From Fibrobacterales bacterium (GTDB lineage Bacteria; Fibrobacterota; Fibrobacteria; Fibrobacterales; JAOPTW01): a DNA stretch of 53,727 nucleotides. The position numbers and the translations under genes are program-made. Position 1 is the first letter of the stretch. Every line of letters begins with the position of its first letter. Location: contig JAOPTX010000042.1 in NCBI GenBank assembly GCA_051532055.1, positions 1 through 53,727 of the forward strand, given 5' to 3'. Positions 31,923 to 52,863 of this stretch are shown piece after piece. The notes under the pieces were generated by a model. The model saw only the letters and a list, made by a program, of their open reading frames with translations. It was not told the origin of the DNA and did no database searches.

Positions 31923-34900
31923 ATGATGAGAGGGCACAATCACATGATAAGTCATGTTTCCGTACGCACGTACACATTTCTGATTTTCTTACTTACCACT
32001 AGCATACCCCTATGGGCAGGCTCTGTGGATGACATAGATTTTTCTGTAGAACGGGGTTTCTACGACAATCCTTTTGATGTAGTACTCAGTACTGAAACAT
32101 CAGATGCAACGATCTTTTATACGCTTGATGGCAGCGACCCTTGTGGATCTGCAACGGCACAATCAGGATTAACTCCTGTTACAGTGACCGTTGATCCAAG
32201 TTCAACGTATGGCGGACTTCGCCCAATAACTCCAGCGGTAACGCTTAAAGCATGCGGTTCAGCACCTTCTGAGGATGACGACAGTGACATCGCTGTTTCT
32301 ACCTACCTTTTTATTGATGAAATTGTACAGCAATCATCTAATACTCCTGGGACAGGCTGGCCGTCACCGAACACCGGTTCGGGTCAGCACTATGACTACG
32401 GCATGGATGGAAGTGTTGCACCTCTCAGCGAAATAAGAAACTCACTTCTTTCTGTACCAACAATATCTATGGTAACAGAGCTTCCTAACCTCTTTGATCC
32501 AGGTTTTGGTGTGTACGAGAATGCAACTGCTGCAAAGGCAGATGATCCTTTTGGTAATAAATGGGAGCGTCCTGGTTCTATTGAACTGATTAATCCTAAT
32601 GGTGATGATGGTTTTCAACAGAATTGTGGTATCCGCCTTCGTGGTGGGTATAGCCGCAGTGACTGGAATCCTAAGCACTCTTTTAAAGTATACTTTGACA
32701 AAGACTACGGTCCAAAATACCTTGAGTTCCCGCTTTTTGGTGATGAAGGCGTTCAGAAATACCGTAAAATTGGTTTTCGTACTGCACAAAACTACTCATG
32801 GAACATGTGGGGTGATGAGGGTGATGACAGTCGGAAAAACACCTTTCTCCGTGAACCACTTGCTCGTGATATTCAACGAGCTCAAGGCCGTCTCCACGCA
32901 AAAAGCTTTAACTTTCACTTGTATGTAAATGGTGTCTATTGGGGCTTGTTCATGGTTCAAGAGGCTGCTAGTGCAAAATTTGCAACACAATACCTTGGTG
33001 AAGACAAAGATTTTTATGATGTCATCAATACTGAAGGTGGCAAAGCCGATGCTACTGATGGTTCACTCGATATTTATTATGAGTTGTACGAAAAAGTAAA
33101 ATCGGGTAACCTAACCGATGCTGAGTATTATGCACTCCAAGGACTTGCTTCTAACGGTACAGACAAAGACCCATCACAGTTTCATTATCTTGATGCCGCT
33201 AACTTGATCGACTACATGCTCGCTATTTACTACACGGGTGACAAGGATGCTCCTATTTCTTCATGGCACAACAACGCATACCTTAATAATTTCTATGGTA
33301 TTATTAGCCAAGTGAATCCTGAAGGGTTCCAGTGGGTGCGTCACGATGCAGAACATTCATTTGATGTTGGTGAAGAGAACCGTGTCGGTCCGTATGACCT
33401 TAATGGTAGAGAGTATTTTAATCCACAAACACTGCATGAGAAGCTTATAAGTAATGATGAATACAAAATGCTCTTTAGAGACCTAGCGTATCGTAACTTC
33501 TATAACAATGGACCGATGACTACTGATTCTGTTCAGAGCATGCTTTCTCGTCGCATTAACGACACAGAAGGTCCTATTACCGCGGAATCAGCTCGTTGGG
33601 GCGACCAAAAAAGCACAATCCCACGTACAAAAACTACTTGGTGGAGTGCGGTATCTAATCTACAGAACTTTGTTACCAACAGAACGAATGTTGTGAAACA
33701 ACAATTGAATGATATTGGTTGGTTCACTGATCGTAAACCTCCTGTTGCGACTCTTGATGCATCAGGTGCATTGATTAATGACCGTTTTATCCCTTCTAAT
33801 GGTGATAACGTTGTCGAGCTTGATCCTAATGCAGTAAATACAACAGTATACTATACTATTGATGGCACTGATCCACGTGCCCCTGGTGGTTCTGTTTCAG
33901 CTACAGCTCAATTTGGTGGAAACTTTGCAACAGTTGTTGGCGCAAAGGTTATTAAGGCTCGTAATCGTCAAACTGATGGTGCATGGAGTCCGGTCAGAGA
34001 AATCTTCTTCACTGAATCAATTGGTGAGAACGTAGTTAAGTTTTCTGAAATCCACTACAAACCCGATGAACTTGATGGTGATATCGATGAAAACGCATTA
34101 GAGTTTATTGAAATTACAAATGCAAGTGACCATGCTGTAAGTATGGCTGGCGCCAAATTTAGTAAAGGTGTGTTATATACTTTCCCCGCAGAAACAATTC
34201 TTCAAGCGGGTGAGTATTATGTTATTGCTAAAAATCCAGGTGAGTTTACTCGTCGTTATGGATACATGCCCAATGGACACTACTCTGATGAACTTGATAA
34301 TGGTGACGAACAAGTTGAAATGGTTGATGCATTTGGTCAACGAATTGATAACGTTACCTATGCAGATGAAGGCGAATGGCCAGAATCACCCGACGGTGAT
34401 GGACCATCACTCAATATCTTAAATCTTACTGCTACCACCAACTCTGATGATGCATCTAACTGGACGGCTTCATATGTTCTTCACGGAACCCCAGGATTTG
34501 AAAACCCTGCAGACGTTCCTGTTTTAGTAACAATTGCAGTATCGCCGGTTGAATCAACTATTGGTGCAGGTGCATCGGTTACTCTTGTAGCTTCTGCGAC
34601 TAACCAATATGGAACTCCTTATACTGCGAATTACACATGGACTACCACAGGGACTGCTTCTATTGTAGATGGCGTATTTACCGCTTCTGAAGAAGGAATA
34701 TATGTTGTAACGGTAGAGGCTGAAGGTCAATCTGCTGTTGCGCAAGTTGAAGTTCTTGCCGCTTCTGTACTGACAAGCTTCTCTATAGCTCCCGCTACAG
34801 GGATCTCCTTAGAAATCGGTACTACTCAACAGTTTACTGCAACAGCGTTAGACCAATATGGAAACCCCTATGATACTGAAGTTATTTGGGCGGCAATCGG

Positions 34901-37900
34901 TACAGGCCATCTCACTTCTACAGGCTTATATACTGCTACTACAGCAGGCCAACATAGTGTCACTGCATCTGCAGGAACATTTTCAGATAATACTCAAATT
35001 ACAGTAACTGCTACTTTGATTAATGTTGCGGCGGGTAAACCTGCCACTGCTTCGACCTCAGAAGCTTCTAATTTAGCTCCAGAATTTGCGGTTGATTTTG
35101 ACGGAACTACTCGTTGGTCTTCACAATTTAAAGATGACCAATGGATTATGGTAAATCTTCTTGATGCGTATGACATTTCAGAAGTCGTTCTCGAGTGGGA
35201 AGCTGCTGCGTCAAAACACTACGAAATCCAAGTCTCTGACAACGGGACAGACTGGACAACAGTATTTACAGAAACAAATGGCGATGCTGGCAGAGATGTT
35301 ATATCAATTGCTCCCGTTTCTGCTCGTTATGTCCGTATGTATGGAATTACAAGAGCGACGCAGTGGGGCAACTCACTCTGGTCATTCGAAGCATGGGGAA
35401 CAAAAACTATTACATTCCCTGTACTTTCGTCTATAACTCTCACACCTCTTGCAACAACAGTTACGGTTGGTGAAACACAACAATATACTGCGGAAGGTTT
35501 TGATCAACATGGTAACCCTATAGATGCAGACTATTCTTGGAATATATCAGGTAACAGTACGATTGATGGAAATGGTCTTGTTACAACAATTGAAGCGGGG
35601 ATAGCTTCGGTAACAGTAACATCGTTAGGTTTGAGTGCTACTACTCAGCTTACTATAAGAGAAATACCTGTTCTCACTACTATAGAAGTTTCACCTGCAG
35701 CATCAACAATTTTCCATGGCGGACCTCAGCAATTTATAGCTCGTGGATATGACCAATTTGGTGTTGAAGTAAGTGTTGACGTTGATTGGACTGCTACTGC
35801 TGGTGAAATTCTTTCTGATGGAACATATATCGCCTATGACCTTGGTACCCATACCGTAACTGCTACTGATGGGCTTATCTCTGGAGTTACAGAAATCAAC
35901 GTTATTAGTCTCCCTGTATTGACTACGATTGAAATCACTCCTGGATCAGCTGATATTGCAATCGGTGAGTCACAACAGTTTACTGCTGTCGCATTTGACC
36001 AATATGGCTCAGAAGTAACTTCAAATATTGTATGGAGCACTACTGGTAATGCTACTATTACTACGACTGGTCTATTTAGTGCTGCATTAAGCGGAGATTA
36101 CACAGTGACAGCTGAAACTGATGCAGTTATCGCTACTGCTGCAGTGGTTGTTTCTGAAGTGAACCTTGTTCAAAATGGTGATTTCTCTAATGGCCTCACA
36201 GACTGGTACCTCGATCTCTATAACCCGAGCAATGCTACAAGTACTGTTAATGGAGATGGTGAAGTAGTTATCGACATCATTACTCCTGGATCTGCACACT
36301 GGAACATTCAATTTGGACAACTGCATATCCCTATTGAAGTAGGTAAAAAATACCGCTATAGCTTTGATGCGAAAGCGGAATCTGATAGAAGCCTCAGCAC
36401 TCAAATTGAAACTGATGGAAGCCCATGGACAAACTATGCAAACCTAACTGAAGTGCCAATCACCACAGTTATGACAAACTACTCATTTGAGTTTGTTGCT
36501 CAAGAAACAGACCTTGATGCACGTTTAGTGTTTAATGTTGGCGGTATTAACTCAGATGTAACGCTCAATAACATTAAGATTGTTGAAGTTGCTGAATTTC
36601 CAAATCCTGTACTCACTACCATTGCAATAAGTCAAGATACTCAAGGGCCCGTTCGCCCTCGTCAATTTGTTTATTTTGAAGCTATTGGGTATGACCAGTA
36701 CGGAAGAGTTATTGCTTTTAATGCTGAGTGGGTTGCCGGAAGCCAGGTACATGTGTTCCCACTAGAAAACAATACTGCTCGAGCGTATGGTGAATCTCCT
36801 GAAGAAAAAACTGTAACGGTACAGTCAGGAGCAGTGTCTGCTACAGCAACATTTACTGTTTCTTTTGGACAAGCTGTTACCCAAATAGTTATTGTTCCTA
36901 ATGTTAGTGAGCTTAAAGCAGGTGAGTCAGTACAATTACAGGCTCTTGCAAAAGGTCGCGATGGTTCGGTTATTGAAGGCGTTGATTTTATCTGGACGAG
37001 CTATAGAGATGCAATTGCAACCGTTGATGCAAATGGTCTATTAACTGCCATTTCAGAAGGTACTGCTCAGTTTTCAGTGACTGCTGATGCATTAACAATA
37101 TATTCATATCCAGAAATAAATCCTACACCGGTTCCAACAACTATTTCGATATCTCCATCAAGTGGTACTATTGGGTATAATGTAACAATGTCTATGCACG
37201 CAATACTTCGCGATCAGTATGGTACAACAATACCTACAGATTTTACTTGGTCAGCAACGGGTGGTGAAATTGACGTAACAACAGGTGAATATACCGGTAC
37301 TGAACCTGGCGCTCAAGTTATTACCGCAACTGCTTCGGGGATTTCTCAGACTGCAAGTATTACGGTAAATGCACCGGTAATTAGATCTATTGAAGTAACA
37401 CCAACTAATACAACTATTGCTTTTGGTGGCACTCAACAGTTTTCTGCTCAGGCGTTTGACATGAGTCACAATGCGGTTCCTGGTCAATTTGTTTGGACTG
37501 CTACAAATGGAACGATTGATATAAATGGTCTTTTTACTAGTTCAGTAGAAGGTGATGCAACTATCACTGCAACTTCTGGATCTATTTCTGGGAGCGCTAT
37601 AGTAACGGTAAGTGATGCACCAGTACTGACTACCATTACAGTATCCCCGTTAACAAGTACTGTTAATTTTGGTGAAACCCAACAATTCACTGCCGCAGGA
37701 TTTGATCAATTTGGTAATTCAATTGCAGCTGTAATCACATGGACTACTGAACACTGTACCATAGATCCTAATGGTCTGTTTGTTGGAGTTGTAGAAGGTG
37801 TAACAACGGTAACTGCAACATCTGGGGCAGTTTCTACTACGGTAACTATTACGGTAAATGATGAACCTGTTTTAACCTCAATGACTCTAACTCCAAGAAC

Positions 37901-39497
37901 GGCAAGTATTTCAATTGGCGAAACGCAACAATACACTGCTCAAGCCCTGGATCAAAACGGTGCTGTTTTGGATGTAACATATAATTGGAATGCAAGTGGT
38001 GGGATTATAAGTACATCTGGTTTGTTTACAGCAACAACAGCTGGTTCATTTATAATTTCTGCTGAAACTGGCGGACTGGTCACTGAAGCGACAATCATTG
38101 TTTCAGATGCTCCTCAAAATATTGCACTCAATAAACCAACGACTGCTTCATCTATAGAAAGCGGTAACCAAGCATCTTCTTTCGCTGTAGACCCATCGAC
38201 AGAAACTCGTTGGTCGAGTCTACACTCAAACAATCAATGGATCGCTATCGACCTCGGTGGAGAATTTGACATCAGCTCTGTTGAATTAAACTGGGAAGCC
38301 GCTGCTGGTGAATCGTATGATATTCAAGTCAAAACTGCTGACAATACCACATGGACAACTATTTATAGTGAAACAAATGGTAATGGTGGCATAGAAAACT
38401 TTGATGTATCTGCGAGTCGCGTAACGGACATTAGAATGTATGGCAACACTCGTACTACAATCTATGGCTTTTCTCTCTATGATTTCCAAGTAATGGGATC
38501 ACCTTCAGTAGCACTTCCTCCGGTACTCGACCACATTCAATTTCCACCAACAGTACCTTCAGTTATTGTTGGTGAAGTTGTTCCCTTTGCAGCAACGGGA
38601 ATTGATCAATACGGTGCGCCAATTGCTGCTGTTATTACCTATTCAACAACAGGTGGTACTATTTCAGTATCAGGTTTATTCACTGCTACTGAACTTGGGT
38701 CATTCGTAATTACTGCAGAAGCTGAAGGTATATCAGCGACGGCAACAATAACGGTTAACGCAGCTCCTGAACTTGATGGTGTATTATTCAATCCTACAAC
38801 TTTAGAAGATGTATTAATTGGTGAATCAATACAATTTACGGCTCAAGCGCTCGATCAGTATGGTAACGCATTTCATGATGTCACCTACGAATGGATTATG
38901 CAAGGAGACTGTGGAACGATGAGTAATACTGGTTTATTCACTGCTACTCAAGTATCAGCGGGAAACCTGTGTTCACCTCGTGTTGATATCACACCAAATC
39001 ACCCTGGTAATACACAAATGTTAGTACGCGCAATTGCTGTTGTAGTGACTGACTTTGTTGCAGTGAACATGCTTGTTAATGGTGACCTATCAAACGGTTG
39101 GTCTAACTGGGACATGGGTATCTATTCAACTGCATCTGCTACTCGTTCGGTGAATGGTTCTATAGGAACTATTGCTATCTCTAATGGTGGAACAGCTCAA
39201 TGGAACATTCAGCTGAATCAGATTGGTGTAAACCTCGAAGACGGTGAAACATACCGCTTTAGCTTTTCGGCAAGTACTGTTGATAATAGAACGATAAGCG
39301 CAACACTTGAGAAAGCATCATCTCCATGGAGTTTCTATGGTGGAGCTGCGAGTGTAGCACTTTCGCCAATTACTAAAGATTTTGAGTATGAATTCACTAT
39401 GAGTGGTTCAGACAATGATGCTCGTGTTACCTTTAATTTGGGTAGTAACAGCAACGACATCAATATCTCTGATATTCAAGTAGTAAAGCTCCCATAA
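31923..39497 (+). CDS. Very large secreted CotH kinase: Fn3/CHB_HEX_C-like, CotH, lamin-tail domain, many Big-2 repeats, two F5/8 type C and two CBM4/9 domains
   Basis: 'FSVERGFY...IFYTLDGSDP'; CotH 'GIRLRGGYSR...PKHSFK...LYVNGVYWGL...HDAEHS...ESARWGD'; LTD 'FSEIHY..EFIEITN'; repeated 'DQYG' Big-2 units; 'TRWSS' discoidins; 'NGDFSNG..W' CBM4 domains. Confidence 0.88.
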   Translation: MMRGHNHMISHVSVRTYTFLIFLLTTSIPLWAGSVDDIDFSVERGFYDNPFDVVLSTETSDATIFYTLDGSDPCGSATAQSGLTPVTVTVDPSSTYGGLRPITPAVTLKACGSAPSEDDDSDIAVSTYLFIDEIVQQSSNTPGTGWPSPNTGSGQHYDYGMDGSVAPLSEIRNSLLSVPTISMVTELPNLFDPGFGVYENATAAKADDPFGNKWERPGSIELINPNGDDGFQQNCGIRLRGGYSRSDWNPKHSFKVYFDKDYGPKYLEFPLFGDEGVQKYRKIGFRTAQNYSWNMWGDEGDDSRKNTFLREPLARDIQRAQGRLHAKSFNFHLYVNGVYWGLFMVQEAASAKFATQYLGEDKDFYDVINTEGGKADATDGSLDIYYELYEKVKSGNLTDAEYYALQGLASNGTDKDPSQFHYLDAANLIDYMLAIYYTGDKDAPISSWHNNAYLNNFYGIISQVNPEGFQWVRHDAEHSFDVGEENRVGPYDLNGREYFNPQTLHEKLISNDEYKMLFRDLAYRNFYNNGPMTTDSVQSMLSRRINDTEGPITAESARWGDQKSTIPRTKTTWWSAVSNLQNFVTNRTNVVKQQLNDIGWFTDRKPPVATLDASGALINDRFIPSNGDNVVELDPNAVNTTVYYTIDGTDPRAPGGSVSATAQFGGNFATVVGAKVIKARNRQTDGAWSPVREIFFTESIGENVVKFSEIHYKPDELDGDIDENALEFIEITNASDHAVSMAGAKFSKGVLYTFPAETILQAGEYYVIAKNPGEFTRRYGYMPNGHYSDELDNGDEQVEMVDAFGQRIDNVTYADEGEWPESPDGDGPSLNILNLTATTNSDDASNWTASYVLHGTPGFENPADVPVLVTIAVSPVESTIGAGASVTLVASATNQYGTPYTANYTWTTTGTASIVDGVFTASEEGIYVVTVEAEGQSAVAQVEVLAASVLTSFSIAPATGISLEIGTTQQFTATALDQYGNPYDTEVIWAAIGTGHLTSTGLYTATTAGQHSVTASAGTFSDNTQITVTATLINVAAGKPATASTSEASNLAPEFAVDFDGTTRWSSQFKDDQWIMVNLLDAYDISEVVLEWEAAASKHYEIQVSDNGTDWTTVFTETNGDAGRDVISIAPVSARYVRMYGITRATQWGNSLWSFEAWGTKTITFPVLSSITLTPLATTVTVGETQQYTAEGFDQHGNPIDADYSWNISGNSTIDGNGLVTTIEAGIASVTVTSLGLSATTQLTIREIPVLTTIEVSPAASTIFHGGPQQFIARGYDQFGVEVSVDVDWTATAGEILSDGTYIAYDLGTHTVTATDGLISGVTEINVISLPVLTTIEITPGSADIAIGESQQFTAVAFDQYGSEVTSNIVWSTTGNATITTTGLFSAALSGDYTVTAETDAVIATAAVVVSEVNLVQNGDFSNGLTDWYLDLYNPSNATSTVNGDGEVVIDIITPGSAHWNIQFGQLHIPIEVGKKYRYSFDAKAESDRSLSTQIETDGSPWTNYANLTEVPITTVMTNYSFEFVAQETDLDARLVFNVGGINSDVTLNNIKIVEVAEFPNPVLTTIAISQDTQGPVRPRQFVYFEAIGYDQYGRVIAFNAEWVAGSQVHVFPLENNTARAYGESPEEKTVTVQSGAVSATATFTVSFGQAVTQIVIVPNVSELKAGESVQLQALAKGRDGSVIEGVDFIWTSYRDAIATVDANGLLTAISEGTAQFSVTADALTIYSYPEINPTPVPTTISISPSSGTIGYNVTMSMHAILRDQYGTTIPTDFTWSATGGEIDVTTGEYTGTEPGAQVITATASGISQTASITVNAPVIRSIEVTPTNTTIAFGGTQQFSAQAFDMSHNAVPGQFVWTATNGTIDINGLFTSSVEGDATITATSGSISGSAIVTVSDAPVLTTITVSPLTSTVNFGETQQFTAAGFDQFGNSIAAVITWTTEHCTIDPNGLFVGVVEGVTTVTATSGAVSTTVTITVNDEPVLTSMTLTPRTASISIGETQQYTAQALDQNGAVLDVTYNWNASGGIISTSGLFTATTAGSFIISAETGGLVTEATIIVSDAPQNIALNKPTTASSIESGNQASSFAVDPSTETRWSSLHSNNQWIAIDLGGEFDISSVELNWEAAAGESYDIQVKTADNTTWTTIYSETNGNGGIENFDVSASRVTDIRMYGNTRTTIYGFSLYDFQVMGSPSVALPPVLDHIQFPPTVPSVIVGEVVPFAATGIDQYGAPIAAVITYSTTGGTISVSGLFTATELGSFVITAEAEGISATATITVNAAPELDGVLFNPTTLEDVLIGESIQFTAQALDQYGNAFHDVTYEWIMQGDCGTMSNTGLFTATQVSAGNLCSPRVDITPNHPGNTQMLVRAIAVVVTDFVAVNMLVNGDLSNGWSNWDMGIYSTASATRSVNGSIGTIAISNGGTAQWNIQLNQIGVNLEDGETYRFSFSASTVDNRTISATLEKASSPWSFYGGAASVALSPITKDFEYEFTMSGSDNDARVTFNLGSNSNDINISDIQVVKLP

Positions 39498-44511: not shown

Positions 44512-45855
44512 CTAAGGGGTAATACCCATAGTGGTGACATCGGTGATGGTAATAAACGTCGTATCTTTTATATAACTAAAAGAGTTCTGATTTACAGTAT
44601 CTAACAAAGGGACAGAGGTAATAATCGGATATGTGCCGGCTGGAATTGTAGTGACGGTTCTCCCATCTGCATAGCTAAAGTCAGTCTTGTCCCAATACCC
44701 TATTTGAACAAGCGTATCCAAGAACTCTACGCTGTGGAGGTTCATTACTTCATTATCACCATGAGAATAGAGTATACCAAGAGGAGTGGAATCTAAATCG
44801 AGAAATGAAAGCATCAACCATTCTTGGGGGCTGCTCCCTATTGCATAGAATTGTACTGCAGTTTGATTGATATTCGTAAGGGTGACTGTTATGGGTATTG
44901 AGTCAATCATGGCGAAAGTATTGTCTGGTATTCTTGTAGTTACTTTAAAGTCACCATATATCTTTTCTGACAAAATAGGAACAGAAGGAGTCTCGGTTTG
45001 AGGGGGATCAGTAACCGTATCAATTGATGAAGAGCTCAATACTGGTTCACTAGAGGAGAGTAACACTTCTGGAGTGCTCGATAGTATGAATGAAGACGAA
45101 CTTGCATGTGCACTACTCACTGTGCTGCTTTCATTGGCTGTATCAGCACTTGAAATAGTGCTACTACTATTACTTGCTTCTTCAGAACCATCAACACTAT
45201 TGTCGTCATTTTTATCGTCACTAGTATCGATAGTATCGCTCGATGAAAGGGTAAAGGTCGTTATATTGAGTGGTACAGAAATAGAGGTTTCGGTTAATTC
45301 GGTCCCTACAGATTCTATGACAATAAGGCTTTGATCAGGAACGGAATCTTTTGTTGTATCAAACTGTATAACATCAAAGTGATAAGTCCCATTACTGTCT
45401 ACCATAAGGGTGTCGCTATAAAACAGGAGAGCATGTATCGGGCGCGATCCTGGAAGTATCGAGACAGGAGTCACGGGGTAGTAAACGAGTGAGTCAATGT
45501 GAACAAAGGGGACGGTATCAGTAAGGGATATATTAGGAAAGAGCGTACCGAGGGCACTGCTTTTCGAAAGGATATCGTAGCGTGTAAGGGGGAGATTGTC
45601 GAATACAAATTGCCCGGTGTGATCAGGCGTTGTTGATTGAACAATGGTGTGAGGCTCATCCGTACGATACAAGTTAATAATAAGGGGAGCCTTATCTGCA
45701 GTGCTCGCTTTTAAGAGTGAAACAGTATTGGTGATGATAGTACCACCGGTTATGCGCCCGGTTCCATTATCTGAGTCTACAGAAACTGAACAACCAATTA
45801 AAAAACAGCCTATGGATAACAACAGCATTATAATGAGACTTAAAAAGCTTTTCAT
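44512..45855 (-). CDS. Lipoprotein downstream of the TIGR02147 gene (carboxypeptidase-regulatory-like N-domain, Ser-rich linker, possible BsuPI-like C-domain)
   Basis: ATG 45855 overlaps the upstream TGA (ATGA); lipobox LIGC; 'GGTIITNTV', 'PDHTGQFVFDNLP..RYDI'; Ser-rich linker; 'VTLTN...W...PAGTY'. Confidence 0.7.
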   Translation of the reverse strand: MKSFLSLIIMLLLSIGCFLIGCSVSVDSDNGTGRITGGTIITNTVSLLKASTADKAPLIINLYRTDEPHTIVQSTTPDHTGQFVFDNLPLTRYDILSKSSALGTLFPNISLTDTVPFVHIDSLVYYPVTPVSILPGSRPIHALLFYSDTLMVDSNGTYHFDVIQFDTTKDSVPDQSLIVIESVGTELTETSISVPLNITTFTLSSSDTIDTSDDKNDDNSVDGSEEASNSSSTISSADTANESSTVSSAHASSSSFILSSTPEVLLSSSEPVLSSSSIDTVTDPPQTETPSVPILSEKIYGDFKVTTRIPDNTFAMIDSIPITVTLTNINQTAVQFYAIGSSPQEWLMLSFLDLDSTPLGILYSHGDNEVMNLHSVEFLDTLVQIGYWDKTDFSYADGRTVTTIPAGTYPIITSVPLLDTVNQNSFSYIKDTTFITITDVTTMGITP

Positions 45856-46691
45856 GACGTCCCTTTCCCCTTGGATAAAGAACGGGAGAGAGGAAAAAAC
45901 TGAAGGTTGACTTGAAAGCATTTTTCTACGCGATGTTGTCTTTGGAGAATATCGGCAAGGGTATTTTGAAATTGGGCTACCGCTTGTTCAATCTCGGTAT
46001 ATCCTTCATGTGATACACCCGCAGTGCAGGTTAGAATATTCCGTTCTTCTGCAGGTATGCGTTCAAGTGCTTCTATTCCCATACCCATCATATCTTTTTG
46101 ATGTTTTCGGAGGGCAACATAGTCTTCGGGGTCTGTAGCGGCAATAACCGTGTCTGTCTGAGTATATTGGTCGCCATCTTTTTTAATAAGATTCAGTTGG
46201 AGCAATAACTCAATAGATTTCCGTATCTCTTCATGTGAAATAGTTGGAGTAATAGAGTATCTGAGGTCATCGAGTCTGCCCTTAAAGAGGGAAGAACAGG
46301 CGAGTTCCCGTATGACCGGTGTGTACCATTTTCTAAAATAATGGTACTTCTTTGATTGGATCTTAGAGGTTTCTGGATTTTGAATGCTCTCCAATATAGT
46401 CAAAGCATTCTCTTTCTCTCTATCGCTTTGAGCGTGCTTGAGAGAAAGGAGTTGATAAAAATATTCACATTCTGGGGGAGAAAGCTCAAAAAGAGGAAGG
46501 ATCGTTTTAAGAGAGCGATGTGATAGGGTGTTCGAGCCGTTGAAAATTCTCGACAAATAACTTTTTGATGAAATATCGATTGTCTGTGCAAGGTTCTCTA
46601 GCGTTGTACCGGGGGTAGTAACTTTTTTCTGTTTGTACCACTCACGGATGTAGAGACTGTAGTCGAGATAGTTGTATATATTCACATGCAT
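45852..46691 (-). CDS. TIGR02147 / DUF4423 family protein (N-terminal HTH, putative regulator)
   Basis: 'IYNYLDY..YIREWY..KK', HTH 'LAQTIDISSKSYLSRIFNG', 'YFRKWYTPVIREL', 'SIELLLQLNLI', 'IPAEERNI', 'FQVNLQFFPL'; 279 aa. Confidence 0.88.
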   Translation of the reverse strand: MHVNIYNYLDYSLYIREWYKQKKVTTPGTTLENLAQTIDISSKSYLSRIFNGSNTLSHRSLKTILPLFELSPPECEYFYQLLSLKHAQSDREKENALTILESIQNPETSKIQSKKYHYFRKWYTPVIRELACSSLFKGRLDDLRYSITPTISHEEIRKSIELLLQLNLIKKDGDQYTQTDTVIAATDPEDYVALRKHQKDMMGMGIEALERIPAEERNILTCTAGVSHEGYTEIEQAVAQFQNTLADILQRQHRVEKCFQVNLQFFPLSRSLSKGKGTS

Positions 46692-46696
46692 AGAGG

Positions 46697-46814
46697 CAAA
46701 TATAAGAAGTCTACAATTAAGTGCACTACTTGGTGCACTAAAAATCTGTATAGGCTGTTAAAAGAGGGAATTAGTGCACTTATTGGACTGATGAAATTAT
46801 TTAAGTGCACAAAT
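46697..46814 (-). promoter_or_regulatory. TIGR02147 promoter: four GTGCAC palindromes plus TATATTTG element
   Basis: GTGCAC at 46721, 46733, 46774 and 46805; TATATTTG (minus strand, 46697-46704) lies 5 nt before the ATG. Confidence 0.6.
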
Positions 46815-46903
46815 CCTGGTCGGAATTACAGGCCCGGATTACGAGATACCATTTGCCTAACAGGATGCTCCCATCTATAACTTATTGTTTCTATTATTAC
46901 TCC

Positions 46904-47851
46904 ATGAACAGAATTGACCGCATAGCAGCTATCCTCATACAACTGCAGTCCAAACGGATTGTGACTGCGCAAGAAATTGCAGAACGTTTTGAGATAAGTA
47001 TTCGTACCGTATATCGCGATATTCGCACTCTCGAAGAGGCGGGTGTACCCATAGGTGCTGAAGCGGGGGTTGGGTATTATCTCATGCCAGGTTATTGTCT
47101 GCCTCCCGTACAATTCACCAAAGAGGAGGCCGGTGCTCTTCTTATTGGTGAAAAGTTTGTAGAGAAAATGACTGATAGTGCAACGCAACAAACCTATCGC
47201 TCTGCAATGTTTAAAATAAAGTCGGTACTCCCTGAGACAGAAAAAGATTTTCTTGAGCAACTCAATAGTACCATAGCGGTACAGCGCAGTGAAAACTTTG
47301 AGCCCGATACTGCCGTGAAAGCAATTGAACAGATACAACGGGCCATTGCTGATTCTCATATGTTGAGTATTGAATATACTTCACAAAAAGGGGATGTAAC
47401 AAAACGGACGTTAGAGCCTGTGGGTCTTATCTATTATATGAGTCATTGGCATCTTATAGGGTATTGTAAGCTTCGTAATGATTATCGCGATTTCAGAAGT
47501 GACCGCATTAGTTCCATCGCCATTTTAAAAGAGCGTTTTAATAAACAAAACCGTTTAACCCTCAATGAGTATCTTACTGAGTATGAGAGTGACGTCTCAC
47601 TCGAAAAAGCAGTACTTACCATTAAGAGTTCCGATGCAAGTATGATGGACAGTAGTAAATACTATTTTGGATATCATTCAGAAGAAAGAAAGGGCGCAAC
47701 CACAGAGTTGACGTTCTACACCTCTGATTTCACCTATTTTGCCCACTGGGTTATCAGTTTTACTAATAGGGTATCAATAGTCTCTCCATCAAGCTTACTT
47801 ACCAAGGTGCGAGGGCTTGCACTCGAGCTCTCAGACCACTATTCTGAATAG
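46904..47851 (+). CDS. YafY-family HTH-WYL-WCX transcriptional regulator
   Basis: MNRIDR...TAQEIAERFEISIRTVYRDIRTLEEAGVPI..EAGVGY HTH; WYL 'R.LEP...WHLIGYCKLRNDYRDFRSDRI'. Start at ATG 46904. Confidence 0.93.
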   Translation: MNRIDRIAAILIQLQSKRIVTAQEIAERFEISIRTVYRDIRTLEEAGVPIGAEAGVGYYLMPGYCLPPVQFTKEEAGALLIGEKFVEKMTDSATQQTYRSAMFKIKSVLPETEKDFLEQLNSTIAVQRSENFEPDTAVKAIEQIQRAIADSHMLSIEYTSQKGDVTKRTLEPVGLIYYMSHWHLIGYCKLRNDYRDFRSDRISSIAILKERFNKQNRLTLNEYLTEYESDVSLEKAVLTIKSSDASMMDSSKYYFGYHSEERKGATTELTFYTSDFTYFAHWVISFTNRVSIVSPSSLLTKVRGLALELSDHYSE

Positions 47852-47912
47852 GATTTTGTGTTATTTAGGTTGCCTACCCATCTAAGCCTTATGTATAAGG
47901 ATCAAAACATGC

Positions 47913-47928
47913 TGACATAGGGTTGTCA
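47913..47928 (+). promoter_or_regulatory. TGACA-N6-TGTCA inverted repeat, likely YafY/WYL operator
   Basis: TGACAtagggtTGTCA lies between the WYL gene and the GyrI-like gene and is followed by TATGAT (-10-like) at 47940-47945. Confidence 0.65.
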
Positions 47929-47997
47929 CTCCGGGTTTGTATGATTGTATATAGGTGATCATGGTGGTCGCCACACACAATACACAAGGAAAGCCTT

Positions 47998-48468
47998 ATG
48001 TCACAACTTACTATCGAAAAAAAATGCATTGCCCCTCTTACTCTTTTAGCCGCAACGATTACTACGACCTTGAACACCCTCGTACAAAATATTGGCAATA
48101 TCCCCTGTGAAATTATGGAGGAGATAGAGGCGAAAGGTCTTGTTGCTTCGGGTCCTGCGGTATTTGAATATGTGGGTTGTACGGATGACCTTGAAAAAGA
48201 GTTCACTCTCTATATCTGTTTTCCTGTAGCTGCTGACAGTACATACGAAGGCACCTATGATTTAGTTACCACTAAACCCTTTGATTGTTTAGAGACCAAC
48301 TATACCGGCAGTATGCAAGACTTAGGGCCAAAGGGATGGATGCCATTTATGGGCGCGATTATGCAGGATGGCGCATCGGTAACGGACGTCTGTCGTGAGG
48401 TCTATACCAATTGGGCTGGCCCAGAATCTGATGAGAATGTGATTGAGTTGCAAATGGGTATTAAATAA
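47998..48468 (+). CDS. GyrI-like small-molecule-binding domain protein
   Basis: AAGGA RBS; 'GPAVFEY...LYICFPV...YTGSMQDL...REVYTNW..P.S.ENVIELQMGI'. Confidence 0.85.
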   Translation: MSQLTIEKKCIAPLTLLAATITTTLNTLVQNIGNIPCEIMEEIEAKGLVASGPAVFEYVGCTDDLEKEFTLYICFPVAADSTYEGTYDLVTTKPFDCLETNYTGSMQDLGPKGWMPFMGAIMQDGASVTDVCREVYTNWAGPESDENVIELQMGIK

Positions 48469-48716
48469 GTCTAGAGCTTTATTACTATACGTTGTAACTA
48501 ACACATATCTGTGTTAATAATTGTAAATAGGGTCGTGCCTCTAAAATCTTGCCCTAATTACGGAGTTCTTTTGACTGGATGAAAATGTATCTGTGATGTA
48601 GCGAGTTTTACATTGTATCAGTGTATCGATATTTGTTTGTCCGTTAAGACTTCTCAATGGAGACTCTCTCATCATTATTTTATTACAGGTGTTCACAATA
48701 CTCAATATTTCCAATA

Positions 48717-48750
48717 AAAGACGCTACCTTAATTAAAAGATAGCGTCTTT
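48717..48750. terminator. Hairpin / probable terminator
   Basis: AAAGACGCTA ... TAGCGTCTTT 10-bp inverted repeat. Confidence 0.6.
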
Positions 48751-48790
48751 ATATAGTGTCTAAAATTTGGGGGCTCATATCAGCAGCAAC

Positions 48791-48909
48791 ATTTGTGCAC
48801 TCAATATATTGTTTCAATCAAATATGTGCACTCAGTCAGGTTTTTTTAGGGTTATTTAGAGTGATTTGTGCATTTAATTATACGTGAAATGATACGCGTC
48901 ATATATTTG
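48791..48909 (+). promoter_or_regulatory. Second, inverted copy of the GTGCAC-array promoter
   Basis: GTGCAC at 48795 and 48826, GTGCAT at 48868, TATATTTG at 48902. 33/44 ungapped identity (hand count) of 48791-48834 to the reverse complement of 46771-46814. Confidence 0.65.
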
Positions 48910-48914
48910 TGACT

Positions 48915-48959
48915 ATGCCAGTGAATACATACAATAGTACCTCTACTCGATACCATTGA
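48915..48959 (+). pseudogene. Remnant of the 5' end of a TIGR02147-type gene (MPVNTYN...)
   Basis: ATGCCAGTGAATACATACAA vs ATGCATGTGAATATATACAA (start of the 46691 gene), 17/20 identical, at the same distance from TATATTTG; stops after 14 codons. Confidence 0.55.
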
Positions 48960-49016
48960 TCAGATAGATTTTGCCTATATAAGAGACACAACCTTTATAC
49001 CCCTAGAGAGACGATT

Positions 49017-52016
49017 ATGAAAAAATTAATTCTTGTTTTTACAATAACGATATCATTTATTTTGTTTGGTTGTTTAACAACCAATGTATCAGATTCAAGA
49101 GATTATGTGATTTCTATAGAAAATAGCAAGCTTCTGATGATTGATAGTATTGTGGTGAATCGAAATGTAGGTGGTAACGTTGATACATTGACGTATGCGC
49201 ATAGTGAAGATTATGATGGTCTTGCACCCCTTGTAAAAATTTCGTTCCCTATTGCATCCGATGTAAATGTTTCGGTAACCGTTGACTATCGATGTTATTC
49301 ATATGGGCTTCCGGTTATTGATAAAGGCCGGTCGTTTCAATATACAGAAGCAGAAGGTCAAGTACGCGGTGGGATAAATCCTCAAACAGTATCTCTTCTT
49401 GGGGAATTTCAGAGACGCATTACTACCGATGCAACTCTTGATAGTTCTGGTCGTGCAAGTGTTTTTGACTCACTTTTTGTTGACTATATCTTGTTTAAAA
49501 ATGATACCACTCAGGTTGACCCAACGGTGTTAACCCTTTTTGAAACTTATAGCTTAAAAGAGGGGGTCGATGTTGCATTTTTAGTGACCGTTCTCACGGA
49601 TACCCTTTCGGAAAGAGGGGTGAATTCTGCTGCGGTAACCCTTGAGTCAATTATCGGGGTTTCTGAGTTAGAGATTCTTGGGTATGTTTCGCTGTATAGT
49701 GATACGGTCACTGTCATTAATTCGGGTGAAAATGTGGCGGGGGGTGTTGAAACCCCGTCTAGTTCCATAGAGATTGTAGTGAGTTCTAGTGAAGAGGATA
49801 AGTCGAGTCAAGCTTCATCCTCTTTATCTTCTTCATCGTCACCCTCATCCTCATCTTCTTTATCTTCGTCATCCTCTTCTTTATCATCATCTTCATCGTC
49901 GTTATCCTCTTCTTTATCATCATCATCATCGTTATCTTCTTCGTCGTTATCATCTTCATCATCGTTATCTTCATCATCGATATCATCTTCATCATCGCCA
50001 TCCTCCTCTTCATCTGTATCATCATCATCGAGTGTGCAACAAATTCATACTATTATTTTTCAATCTTTTGGAAATGGTACCGTTTCTACTGCCCCTTTTG
50101 AAGCAATTGCCGGAGTGGCAGCACAAGTGCCTGGTGTTACTCTAAACCCTGCTGATGGGTATGCATTGAGTGAGTGGGTTCCTACATCGGGAGAGTGTAC
50201 CGTTAATAATAGAGAACCGCTTAATATTACCTGTAGCAAGTCAAGTATACTCTATGCAAAATTTGAGAAAATAGAGTACACCATTACGGTCACTAAAACT
50301 GGAGCTTGTGGGACCGTTGGAACAGGGCCCTATAATTATTCTGTTGGAGCAGGTGCGGTACTGCTCAGTATTACTGAGGGAGACTATTGTACGGTATCAA
50401 GCGTATCATCAACAGGTTTAGAAATAACTCAAAATGGAAGTACCTATTCTGTAACAGGAATTAAGGCCGGGAATTTTAACCCGAACGGTAACGCCTTTAA
50501 TGTTATGGTTGCTTTTGAAAAGGTTGCTGTACCCCAAGTTGATATTAGCTTTGCGTGCTATCTAAATGGAACCAGTATCAATTGTGGCGAAGTTCACACG
50601 GCAACACTCAATACTATTGTTTTAACAGAGGAGAGTGGTCCTTATACATTTACGCCATCACCAAAAACAGGGTATGATTTTGGTGAAATAAGTGTTGGCT
50701 CTAAAGTTATAACTAATGGAAATACCATTAGTTATAACTCCTCCGGAAGTGGTGTGGTTATTGTTAATTATACGAGAAAAGAATATGTAATTCCTGTGCA
50801 ATCAGGGGGGAATGGTACAGTAAGCCCTACAAGTGCACCTTTAAGCCATGGTGAGGCTACTGGCCTTACTGTTGTAGCAACTCCCAAATTTGGATACCAT
50901 TTAAAATGGGTTGGGTATGATGGCTGTGTGATCAATGATCAAATATCATTAACGGTGACCTGTAATGATGAAAATGGATATATTCAAGCGGAGTTTGAAA
51001 GGTACTCTGTTGCGAGTGTTTCTTCCGGAAGGTTTCACACAATGATATTAGAAGAAAATGGTATGTTATGGGCTACTGGGGGTAATAGTTATGGTCAACT
51101 TGGTAATGGCACGGCTGTAGATAGAAGTACTCCCGTTCGGATTATGGCCAGTGTTGCGAGTGTTTCTGCAGGGGCATTTCACACATTAATATTAAAAACA
51201 GATGGTACATTATGGGCTACTGGGCGTAATAGATATGGTCAACTTGGCGATGGTACTACTGTAGATAAAAGTACCCCCGTTCAGGTTTTGGCCGGTGTTG
51301 CAAGTGTTGCTTCAGGAGGGGATCATACAATGATAGTAAAAACAGATGGCACTTTATGGGCTACTGGGAATAATGGTCTTGGTACATTTGGTAATGGCGC
51401 AACGGTAATGAGAAGTTCTCCCATTCAGGTTAGGAGTGGTGTTGTGAGTGTGTCTGCAGGGCTATATCACACAATGATATTACAAACAGATGGCACTTTA
51501 TGGGCTACTGGGCGTAATAATACTGGTGAACATGGTGATGGCACCACTGAACAAAAAAGTACCCCCGTTCAGATTATGACCGGTGTTGCGGAGGCTTCTG
51601 CAGGATTTAGTCACACAATGATATTACAAACAGATGGCACTTTATGGGCTACTGGATATAATGCTGATGGTCAACTTGGTGATGGTACGACTGTAGAAAA
51701 AAATAGCCCCGTTCAAGTTATGAGTGGTGTTGCGAGTATCTCTACACACCTTAATCATACAATGATATTACAGACAGATGGCACTTTATGGGCTACTGGG
51801 TGGGGTTATTATGGTCAACTTGGTGATGGTACAGCTGGAGATAAAAGTACTCCCGTTCAGGTTATGACCGATGTTGCGAGTGTTTCTGCGGGGGCATTTC
51901 ACACAATGATTTTACAAACAGATGGCACGTTATGGGCAACTGGACGTAATGAAAATGGTCAACTTGGTGATGGTACAACACTAGAAAAGGTCATTCCAAT
52001 TGAAATACTCTTTTAA
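49017..52016 (+). CDS. Modular lipoprotein: conserved N-terminal domain, poly-Ser linker, InlB-B-repeat-like modules, C-terminal 7-blade RCC1 propeller
   Basis: Lipobox LFGC; FDSLF motif; long Ser run; 'GNGTVS...P..GY....W' modules; seven 'HTMILQTDGTLWATG.N..GQLGDGT' repeats. Confidence 0.88.
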   Translation: MKKLILVFTITISFILFGCLTTNVSDSRDYVISIENSKLLMIDSIVVNRNVGGNVDTLTYAHSEDYDGLAPLVKISFPIASDVNVSVTVDYRCYSYGLPVIDKGRSFQYTEAEGQVRGGINPQTVSLLGEFQRRITTDATLDSSGRASVFDSLFVDYILFKNDTTQVDPTVLTLFETYSLKEGVDVAFLVTVLTDTLSERGVNSAAVTLESIIGVSELEILGYVSLYSDTVTVINSGENVAGGVETPSSSIEIVVSSSEEDKSSQASSSLSSSSSPSSSSSLSSSSSSLSSSSSSLSSSLSSSSSLSSSSLSSSSSLSSSSISSSSSPSSSSSVSSSSSVQQIHTIIFQSFGNGTVSTAPFEAIAGVAAQVPGVTLNPADGYALSEWVPTSGECTVNNREPLNITCSKSSILYAKFEKIEYTITVTKTGACGTVGTGPYNYSVGAGAVLLSITEGDYCTVSSVSSTGLEITQNGSTYSVTGIKAGNFNPNGNAFNVMVAFEKVAVPQVDISFACYLNGTSINCGEVHTATLNTIVLTEESGPYTFTPSPKTGYDFGEISVGSKVITNGNTISYNSSGSGVVIVNYTRKEYVIPVQSGGNGTVSPTSAPLSHGEATGLTVVATPKFGYHLKWVGYDGCVINDQISLTVTCNDENGYIQAEFERYSVASVSSGRFHTMILEENGMLWATGGNSYGQLGNGTAVDRSTPVRIMASVASVSAGAFHTLILKTDGTLWATGRNRYGQLGDGTTVDKSTPVQVLAGVASVASGGDHTMIVKTDGTLWATGNNGLGTFGNGATVMRSSPIQVRSGVVSVSAGLYHTMILQTDGTLWATGRNNTGEHGDGTTEQKSTPVQIMTGVAEASAGFSHTMILQTDGTLWATGYNADGQLGDGTTVEKNSPVQVMSGVASISTHLNHTMILQTDGTLWATGWGYYGQLGDGTAGDKSTPVQVMTDVASVSAGAFHTMILQTDGTLWATGRNENGQLGDGTTLEKVIPIEILF
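49803..50033 (+). repeat. Low-complexity poly-Ser linker (TCN-rich)
   Basis: Run of TCA/TCT/TCG/TCC codons punctuated by TTA. Confidence 0.9.
51004..52011 (+). repeat. Seven tandem 144-bp (48-aa) RCC1 repeats
   Basis: TATGGGC at 51067, 51211, 51355, 51499, 51643, 51787 and 51931: exact 144-bp period. Confidence 0.92.
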
Positions 52017-52180
52017 TTTTATACTGTTAGTTTCTTTTAAACAGGTCGAGTCCATATTGGAAAACTATATACCCGATGGTAGTGATAGGGCTCTTTAAAC
52101 TTGATCACCAGATACATCAACTATATGTTGCATTGTGTAGATATTGATGAGTTGGTGATGATATAATCAAAAGGTGAATA

Positions 52181-52217
52181 AAAAAAGGTGAGGGGCAGAC
52201 CAGTCCTCACCTTTTTT
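52181..52217. terminator. Bidirectional terminator
   Basis: AAAAAAGGTGAGG ... CCTCACCTTTTTT perfect 13-bp inverted repeat between convergent genes. Confidence 0.85.
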
Positions 52218-52254
52218 ATGGTGCGTTTAATAGTATACACAGTTAAACGACCGA

Positions 52255-52863
52255 TTATGCTGCGTCCGATGCTTCCTCAGGGTTTGTTTCGATATCCGTA
52301 TCAAATTCTGAATGAGTATGCTTAGGAATTAAAGTATCGACTTCTTCTTCAGACATTGAACCTTCAAACGAATGTTCTGTTACGCTTGTTTTTGATTTTT
52401 GTGACTTTGCATTTAAGCGGCTTTGTTTGCTGTAAAATTGACTCTTTGTTTCTTTGTCCTCGATATAGACCATCTCTACCCAGGTACGAAGATATTTAAT
52501 TGACTCTTCCAATAGGGTAACTGTAGTATCTCTGATGATACGGGGTTCAGAATAAGTAGTACCATCAATTGTTGAACTCTTATGCTTTCTCCCAAGTACA
52601 GACCCAAGCTCAATAGCACGATCTAGTTCTTGCACGGCAACCTTTACCTCTGCTAACTCAGAAATAATCTGTTTACCAATTCTACCGAGGTCAAAAAGAT
52701 CTTGAATGGTATCACTGATTCTGCTCCCATCAGATATTTTACGAACTATCTCTTTTCGATTGGCGTCATTGGCACACACAATTTTAACGCGACTGAGTAA
52801 CCGAGTTCTCAACGTTTTAGCTTCGGCAAAGATGTGAGGCCAGCTCTCTTTGTGATTGGGCAA
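52255..52863 (-). CDS. Hypothetical helical protein, possibly 5'-truncated
   Basis: 202-aa ORF with protein-like composition ('DTIQDLFDLGRIG'); TTG start with an in-frame TAA two codons upstream and no clear RBS; followed by a terminator. Confidence 0.55.
   Translation of the reverse strand: MPNHKESWPHIFAEAKTLRTRLLSRVKIVCANDANRKEIVRKISDGSRISDTIQDLFDLGRIGKQIISELAEVKVAVQELDRAIELGSVLGRKHKSSTIDGTTYSEPRIIRDTTVTLLEESIKYLRTWVEMVYIEDKETKSQFYSKQSRLNAKSQKSKTSVTEHSFEGSMSEEEVDTLIPKHTHSEFDTDIETNPEEASDAA

Follow-up and report, generated by a model that had tools for sequence, protein, structure and literature searches.

The stretch of DNA considered here, hereafter the window, comprises 53,727 nucleotides of a Fibrobacterales bacterium (contig JAOPTX010000042.1) and carries an array of GTGCAC palindromes upstream of a gene for a TIGR02147/DUF4423 regulator, as well as a second copy of that array upstream of a predicted RCC1-repeat lipoprotein. 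The array is best explained as an operator private to the TIGR02147 protein encoded beside it, and the second copy as an orphaned duplicate likely controlled by the same protein in trans, a reading that we consider reasonably probable. Binding, activation or repression, and control in trans we infer from the sites and their conservation, from a decayed regulator stub behind the second copy, from the pairing of regulator and lipoprotein genes, and from group-specific words in related genomes. It is likely that many of the approximately 50 paralogues in the source genome read a short word of their own.

The source genome, G000 (5.17 Mb, 39.6% GC), in which the window is C42:1-53727, is compared with G001, a genome of the same genus; C-numbers denote contigs of the genome named. 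A further set holds 135 members of the TIGR02147 family, drawn from the five genomes used of genus g6, which is probably Fibrobacter (30 of 31 and 30 of 34 matches from two of them, all matches from the other three), and 1465 upstream regions of G000 serve as controls for upstream comparisons. Because four-fold identity spans 0.38-0.93 over 35 orthologue pairs, the four-fold sites of only two local genes, the regulator and the RCC1 gene, are used as neutral yardsticks.

The first copy of the array and the genes that follow it are made up of these features:

46805..46810, minus strand: copy 1 site 1, GTGCAC, with the -10-like box beginning 106 bp further on; unchanged in G001
46774..46779, minus strand: copy 1 site 2, GTGCAC, 31 bp past site 1; unchanged in G001
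46733..46738, minus strand: copy 1 site 3, GTGCAC, 72 bp past site 1, directly upstream of the inferred -35 position
46721..46726, minus strand: copy 1 site 4, GTGCAC, 12 bp past site 3, on the inferred -35 position
46709..46714, minus strand: copy 1 site 5, a weaker GTAGAC that reads GTACAC in G001 and falls within the inferred promoter spacer
46699..46704, minus strand: TATATT, likely -10 box, 7 nt before the ATG of a predicted leaderless transcript
45852..46691, minus strand: TIGR02147/DUF4423 gene, 279 aa, with a predicted XRE-type helix-turn-helix (HTH) at about residues 8-91, a winged HTH at about 112-184 and a C-terminal alpha/beta part
44512..45855, minus strand: predicted lipoprotein, 447 aa, with an ATGA overlap with the regulator stop; its orthologue follows the regulator in G001

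Counted from 46810 on the minus strand, GTGCAC occurs at offsets 0, 31, 72, and 84, followed by TATATTTG at 106 and ATG at 119, exactly as the first-pass annotation of this DNA had placed them; the fifth, weaker site 12 bp past site 4 is an addition. The -35 position is deduced from the TATATT box under the assumption of a 17-bp spacer. TATATT ends 7 nt before the ATG, a spacing common in the family, which suggests that TIGR02147 transcripts are leaderless: of the 97 genus g6 family genes with a box found (of 135), 52 have it at a distance of 6-8 nt from the ATG, as do 7 of 32 in G000. A sigma-70 scanner calls neither promoter (copy 1 or copy 2), as expected because a canonical -35 element is absent. 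In one marine metatranscriptome, present as contigs (share 0.09), short exact pieces cover the IDH, WYL, and RCC1 genes as well as the regulator-lipoprotein junction, and no piece covers either promoter, contigs of this kind being unable to tell starts or levels.

Genome-wide, G000 holds three GTGCAC pairs 31 bp apart, two of which are copy 1 and copy 2. The spacings of the array had been likened to whole helical turns; the 81 same-strand spacings in genus g6, which come from related promoters, cluster at 10-13, 18-25, and 70-73 bp, and periods of 10, 10.5, and 12 bp all score. Of note, 19 of these 81 spacings set a proximal and a distal site 70-73 bp apart, mostly within one related clade, and in the window site 1 and site 3 lie 72 bp apart.

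The second copy lies on the opposite strand:

48795..48800, plus strand: copy 2 site 1, GTGCAC
48826..48831, plus strand: copy 2 site 2, GTGCAC
48868..48873, plus strand: copy 2 site 3, GTGCAT (a perfect GTGCAC in G001)
48880..48885, plus strand: copy 2 site 4 position, site lost; same loss in G001
48902..48907, plus strand: TATATT, likely -10 box, ending 7 nt short of the ATG and retained in G001
48915..48959, plus strand: decayed 5' stub of a sister TIGR02147 gene, a 14-codon frameshifted open reading frame in G000
49017..52016, plus strand: RCC1-repeat predicted lipoprotein, 999 aa; its G001 orthologue stands behind the same promoter

Here too the positions first reported agree with the sequence: from 48795, GTGCAC stands at offsets 0 and 31, GTGCAT at 73, ATACGT at 85, TATATTTG at 107, and ATG at 120 (48915). 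The collinearity of the two copies stands as well, although 31 rather than the reported 33 of the first 44 nt are identical. The likeness is beyond chance, with a local alignment score of 98.5 compared with a control mean of 33.3 (sd 8.5) and a best unrelated score of 64.5; the two higher scores belong to copy 1 and copy 2, and among the 49 TIGR02147 upstream regions compared, the next-best reaches 46.5. Between the copies, the palindromes are indeed kept better than the spacers, with 17 of 18 bases identical in the first three sites and 55 of 102 at the remaining positions (Fisher p=0.0006). The ATACGT formerly read as a degenerate fourth site departs from GTGCAC at four of six positions in G000 and G001 alike, and the site is more aptly described as lost.

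The lipoprotein does not begin at the ATG at 48915 but at 49017; that ATG opens a decayed regulator gene. The alignment of the copies extends beyond this ATG into the first codons of the regulator, and in G001, where the ATG itself is deleted, the next codons still resemble the N-terminus of the regulator (40 of 48 bases match the first 58 nt of the window gene). Scored against 232 family genes, the G001 stub gives its top scores, 71.5 and 68.0, with the window gene and its orthologue, the next score being 41. Because the stub best matches these two genes, copy 2 is read from the alignments as a duplicate of this promoter together with the decayed 5' stub of a sister regulator. The copy 2 promoter is 105/114 identical between G000 and G001, compared with 343/446 at four-fold sites in the RCC1 gene (p=2e-5). 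The stub, meanwhile, erodes and gathers indels. The stub of this regulator behind copy 2, the above-neutral conservation, and the loss of the site on the inferred -35 position are new here.

A purine-rich start signal at about 49005-49010 belongs to the RCC1 gene itself, and a paralogue of this gene in G001 without an array has the same last approximately 20 bases before its start; the stretch before the RCC1 gene is therefore the start region of the lipoprotein itself. A 3' remnant of a deleted regulator was considered for this stretch and rejected, as it scored no better against the 3' end of this gene than against others. By eye, the RCC1 lipoprotein does not carry the short glycine/threonine-rich tag that typically follows the cysteine of the usual partners. 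Because this protein is unlike the usual cassette partner, copy 2 is more readily seen as a captured promoter than as a cassette that would be complete but for its regulator. Thus, the proposal of a cassette that lost its regulator would be right in that copy 2 appears to be a cassette promoter without one, but not in the sense of an intact cassette, the RCC1 protein being an atypical partner. Elsewhere in G000, 99 bp at C40:4121-4217 duplicate, at 75%, the sequence upstream of the C106 paralogue; no family gene is listed on C40, and this may be a second orphaned promoter. In the blastn comparison that revealed it, copy 2 itself came to light only with the G001 query.

In G001, the regulator orthologue is 95% identical and all 24 bases of the four copy 1 sites are kept, compared with 81/96 of the other promoter positions and 89/110 of the four-fold sites of the gene, which drift at a similar rate (sites: Fisher p=0.028). 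Two blocks are shared between the genomes, and their edges lie close to the arrays. The first block (window 44516-46841) corresponds to G001 C42 and begins 31 bp outside the first site of copy 1, and the second (window 48789-52850) corresponds to G001 C12 and begins 6 bp outside the first site of copy 2. The best relatives of this paralogue outside the genus, from genome and metagenome scans, are 29-33% identical; none is close, and a deeper footprint is therefore impossible.

The regulator is a member of TIGR02147 ("Fsuc_second")/DUF4423, with 205.5 bits against TIGR02147 (cut-off 50; residues 3-270) and 98.9 bits against PF14394 (cut-off 30), and it shares in the large paralogous expansion of the family, which counts 52 matches in G000 (50 over the cut-off), 50 in G001, and 13-56 copies per genome in the 15 genomes listed (8 and 12 in two at a stricter cut). 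Its structure model has a mean predicted local distance difference test score (pLDDT) of 83.9 and a predicted template modelling score of 0.66, with pLDDT 81-90 in the N-terminal domain and a low-confidence linker at 109-111. Fold matches are weak for the XRE-type part at residues 8-91 (Z 7.2 to 3pxp and 6.5 to DdrO, with C.Esp1396I among the weak ones) and middling for residues 112-184, which match ArsR/HxlR-like winged HTH proteins, and for residues 112-268, which match Kfla_6221. In a profile search of solved structures, C.BclI comes top (E 0.058), the cI N-domain has E 0.3, and nothing scores better than E 0.058. The literature search, which covered the main texts of openly accessible papers, returned no paper on TIGR02147 and neither a DNA target nor a function for the family. 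The sole mention of DUF4423 in that literature is an entry in a proteomics table (PMC12546842).

The ATGA overlap by which the regulator had been said to be coupled to the lipoprotein gene is real (45852-45855). The 447-aa lipoprotein itself matches no family over cut-off in profile searches, and no nuclease family. Pairing of this kind is widespread: a strict lipobox pattern occurs in 25 of 38 open reading frames downstream of family genes in G000 and in 97 of 125 in genus g6, compared with 398/3430 for all genes of G000. In the partner lipoproteins of G000, the tag after the lipidated cysteine varies with the clade of the regulator, and it takes the form G-x-I-T-G-x-T-x-I-x-N-T in the partners of the window gene and its closest paralogues.

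The upstream regions of other family members hold words of their own. The closest paralogues have repeated words akin to GTGCAC yet distinct from it: C14 has three GTATAC, C30 has two GTAGCC 31 bp apart, C90 has GTACAC/GTGAAC, and C8 has GTTCAC/GTGAAC; among the matches listed these words are mostly kept in G001. The orthologue groups of genus g6 likewise carry group-specific words near the promoter, often repeated or arranged as dyads with half-sites 9-12 bp apart. In a leave-one-out analysis of this genus, the word taken from the other group members is found in the held-out member in 37 of 80 cases, with 0.44 expected from non-members; without two groups in which the word is a ribosome-binding or -10 sequence, the count is 30 of 67. 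Repeated 8-mers amount to 0.68 per upstream region over 47 family genes of G000, compared with 0.15 in shuffles (maximum 0.34) and 0.26 in the 1465 controls (p=0.002).

Binding specificity probably resides in the N-terminal HTH, although no residue code is derivable. The predicted recognition helix is where the protein is most group-specific: when the 279 columns are ranked by agreement within and difference between 16 orthologue groups, column 48 comes first and columns 54, 51, and 47 take ranks 4, 5, and 10, while the winged-HTH helix at 153-165 ranks 75-277. Identity at columns 43, 44, 47, 48, and 51 goes with similar upstream regions to an extent that the remaining sequence does not account for (t=6.15 over 263 non-redundant genes), a value that none of 150 random column sets reaches (maximum 6.13); the effect is visible only at or above 35-50% identity, and the pairs are not independent.

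Two further sets of features bear on the alternatives, namely the divergent WYL regulator with its dyad and the LexA-type boxes of G000:

46904..47851, plus strand: HTH_11-WYL (YafY-like) regulator, a neighbour outside the system, not beside the cassette in G001
47913..47928, plus strand: TGACA-N6-TGTCA dyad ahead of the 156-aa gene, likely a site of the WYL protein itself
G000 C15:229525, C15:234917, C37 (before 20401; at 112175), C44:69399, C44:73453, C38:84316, and C16:72662: LexA-type boxes

In its strong form, the first-pass annotation held GTGCACT(T/C)A to be the common operator of TIGR02147 proteins. Conservation of the array and its tie to a TIGR02147 gene favour this, as does the GTGCAC upstream of two further paralogues (C27 and C57), but at least two GTGCAC occur in just 2 of the 48 paralogue upstream regions of G000. 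The enrichment upstream of other TIGR02147 genes proposed as a check is absent at this count, and other paralogues carry different conserved words; a family-wide operator is hardly credible. The C27 and C57 paralogues also bear on whether the array is read mainly by another factor, be it a paralogue of their type or some further regulator, since C27 has GTGCACG twice and also R48, C57 has GTGCAC beside GTAGAC, and the recognition-code tests are weak or null. This is nevertheless improbable given that the array travels with this gene and was duplicated together with its 5' end, and that the flanks differ, with T after GTGCAC here and G in C27. Almost no weight can be given to binding by the divergent WYL protein, even though the array occupies positions 94-183 bp upstream of the WYL start in G000, because the WYL locus of G001 is without GTGCAC (none in the 3.5 kb surrounding the nearest homologue, 69% identical) and has a different dyad, the same TGACA-N6-TGTCA that accompanies the WYL and 156-aa genes in both genomes. 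The G001 array remains beside the TIGR02147 gene, the closest WYL gene of that genome lies on C1 and the IDH gene on C13, so that the tie of the array to TIGR02147 rather than to WYL is upheld. Methylation of the palindromes, as targets of the GTGCAC or GTNNAC type in an epigenetic switch, would suit the closest paralogues, whose words mostly fit GTNNAC, and methylase motifs of these types exist. However, the genome has no marked bias in either (GTGCAC at 0.93 and GTNNAC at 0.97 of expectation), and methylation leaves unexplained why one variant is repeated per promoter with fixed flanks and why other groups have non-GTNNAC words; judged from these word counts and promoter layouts, its probability is very small.

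A possibility that the first-pass annotation missed is that GTGCAC is also the half-site of the LexA box of G000, the Fibrobacter-type consensus of which we take to be TGCNC-N4-GTGCA. In G000, dyads of the form TGCNC-N4-GNGCA stand before uvrA, recA, lexA, dinB-like, and dnaE2-like genes, and the genes behind the boxes listed above are uvrA, lexA, recA, dnaE2-like, dinB-like, SRAP-like, dprA-like, and a helicase, named by reading their translations; LexA has been characterised in F. succinogenes (PMC3091678). The sites could accordingly be LexA half-sites in a promoter under SOS control, as GTGCAC holds both halves of the box. N4 spacing alone is enriched outside genes (26/49, about half of them from one repeat element, compared with 10/72 for N6), the lexA promoter is the second-best match of the copy 1 matrix, sites 4 and 5 form an N4 dyad with two mismatches, and copy 2 windows score 11-12 bits. 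Yet the window sites are single or, as sites 3 and 4, spaced N6, and with a matrix of eight boxes that themselves score 13.9-23.8 bits (leave-one-out), copy 1 reaches at most 6.6 bits in G000 and 7.0 in G001, approximately the 95th percentile of controls. The best copy 2 windows lie at different places in the two genomes, and LexA leaves the GTATAC or GTAGCC arrays of the sister paralogues unexplained; we regard SOS control as quite improbable. The remaining alternative, which we consider unlikely, accepts copy 1 as a real operator and sees copy 2 as constitutive or as a decaying relic in which the sites are passengers without control in trans. Its site 3 is mismatched in G000 and its site 4 is gone, its spacers are kept between the genomes (88/96) like its sites (17/18), so that at such a distance the sites are not singled out, and the G001 paralogue of the RCC1 gene does without an array. 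The contrast between the copies, with 17/18 in the three upstream sites and 55/102 in the spacers, is nevertheless unlike neutral decay, and the copy 2 promoter is more conserved than synonymous sites.

Several results weigh against the private operator as we propose it. The HTH has only weak counterparts among solved structures (E 0.058-0.3; Z 6.5-7.2). The excess of 6-mer and 7-mer repeats over controls in G000 is not significant (p=0.19 and 0.14), and the homogeneity within promoters (z approximately 4.9) falls inside the control range of 0.7-5.2 in that genome. Leave-one-out recovery reveals group-specific footprints rather than the identity of the binder, on which it says nothing because orthologous promoters share ancestry, and the presence of GTGCAC upstream of the C27 and C57 paralogues counts on the same side. 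Of the 306 clusters that the copy 1 matrix finds genome-wide, copy 2 takes only fourth place, with the lexA promoter (second) and one other above it; the lexA promoter ranks high because the LexA half-site lies within GTGCAC. A one-residue code fixed beforehand (D48 for GTNC[TG]C and R/K48 for GTNNAC) failed on 148 held-out genes, with a mean GTNNAC value of 0.50 in the R/K and D classes alike and 0.86 elsewhere; its D half is nominal at 200 bp (p=0.02) and gone at 150 bp. Transfer of 17 genus g6 matrices to the paralogue with the nearest helix gave a null result, with a top-5 rank in 3 and 4 of 17 in G000/G001 where approximately 1.8 are expected. A second transfer is mixed, with 4 of 19 in the top tenth under the strict definition (p=0.11) and 13 of 49 under a looser one (4.9 expected), four definitions having been tried on pairs that are not independent; single clear cases such as C155 and C58 rank near the top.

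If the array is the private operator of the TIGR02147 protein, the N-terminal XRE-type HTH would probably read a word of 6-7 bp close to GTGCACT, and K43, S44, S47, R48, and N51 of the predicted recognition helix are likely base contacts. We are rather confident that TATATT at 46704-46699 would serve as the -10 box of a leaderless regulator-lipoprotein transcript. By analogy, it is tentatively proposed that binding at sites 1-3 activates, while binding at sites 4 and 5, on the -35 position and in the spacer, represses at higher protein levels, such that the lipoprotein would be set by feedback; plain autorepression is an alternative to this activate-then-repress step, to which we give distinctly less than an even chance. 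Copy 2 kept sites 1-3 and may have lost site 4 because, with no regulator downstream, a feedback site is dispensable; the RCC1 lipoprotein would then follow the window protein without feedback, a proposal that falls only a little short of even. If the C-terminal DUF4423 part receives a signal, the coupled lipoprotein is an obvious candidate.

Several elements of this layout recall known autoregulated systems. Lambdoid cI and Cro repressors act at multi-site operators (PRM), and the window protein resembles them in its predicted XRE/cI-type HTH, in the several sites around its own promoter, and in the predicted leaderless message. It differs from them in having neither a peptidase domain nor a phage context, and in belonging to a chromosomal paralogue expansion tied to lipoproteins. 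A further parallel would be to restriction-modification (R-M) controller (C) proteins such as C.AhdI, C.Esp1396I, C.BclI, and C.PvuII, with which the window regulator shares the gene overlap and would share the XRE-type HTH, the site layout, and the leaderless mRNA. C proteins have sites upstream of their own genes that differ between branches of the family (PMC2632904). According to the same source, the distal site by the -35 element activates and the proximal site on it represses, the mRNA is often leaderless, and the C gene overlaps the downstream gene; a clear -10-like box was not found for C genes (PMC2632904). By analogy, the window regulator would thus work like a controller protein in layout without being a member of that group: it has 279 aa and three domains, including a winged HTH and a C-terminal part, compared with a chain of 77 aa in C.BclI; its partner is a predicted lipoprotein rather than an endonuclease; and each genome holds dozens of its paralogues, its short words extend across approximately 100 bp, and its promoter has a clear -10-like box.

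The logic of an autoregulated XRE protein with several sites is already known. TIGR02147 is among the largest gene families of Fibrobacterota, and no described target was found for it in the literature searched; the locus offers a concrete candidate protein-site pair, with a built-in control in the form of a natural second promoter in which three sites are kept and the fourth is lost in two genomes. In the broadest and most speculative form of the proposal, which we think doubtful, TIGR02147/DUF4423 would be a set of insulated activator-repressor switches, each with a private word read by a diversified helix, a leaderless feedback loop, and one surface lipoprotein. New regulons might then arise when a promoter duplicates, loses its regulator and repressing site, and captures a gene; the window would be a snapshot of this process, and its word may also touch SOS promoters such as that of lexA. 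Dozens of orthogonal regulator-operator pairs in each genome, if they are real, would account for one-by-one tuning of the many surface lipoproteins and would provide a ready parts set for studying the diversification of DNA-binding specificity.

The neighbouring segment at 46904-48468 comprises the WYL regulator and the 156-aa gene, which is of no known family; by eye, its product recalls GyrI-like binders, a resemblance that no search confirmed. The identical 16-mer dyad occurs at two loci in G001, one of them between a WYL gene and a homologue of the 156-aa gene, and TGACA-N6-TGTCA is likely the operator of the WYL protein, with the 156-aa gene as its target. No report giving this dyad for a WYL protein was found in the literature searched.

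Further along the window, 31923-39497 encodes an exported multi-domain protein of 2524 aa with no NCBIfam family over cut-off, in which many immunoglobulin-like and carbohydrate-binding-like repeats are seen by eye. On G001 C42, the cassette is part of a lipoprotein-rich island; two additional intact TIGR02147 genes, together with a third that is 5'-truncated, lie within 32 kb. Thirteen copies of an imperfect inverted repeat of approximately 75 bp, bounded by CAAC/GTTG, are present on G000 C3, C45, C46, C47, C83, C89, C100, and C115, often between genes for exported proteins, and one lies approximately 230 bp before the TIGR02147 gene at C89:3676. By its look, the repeat may be of the integron attC type.

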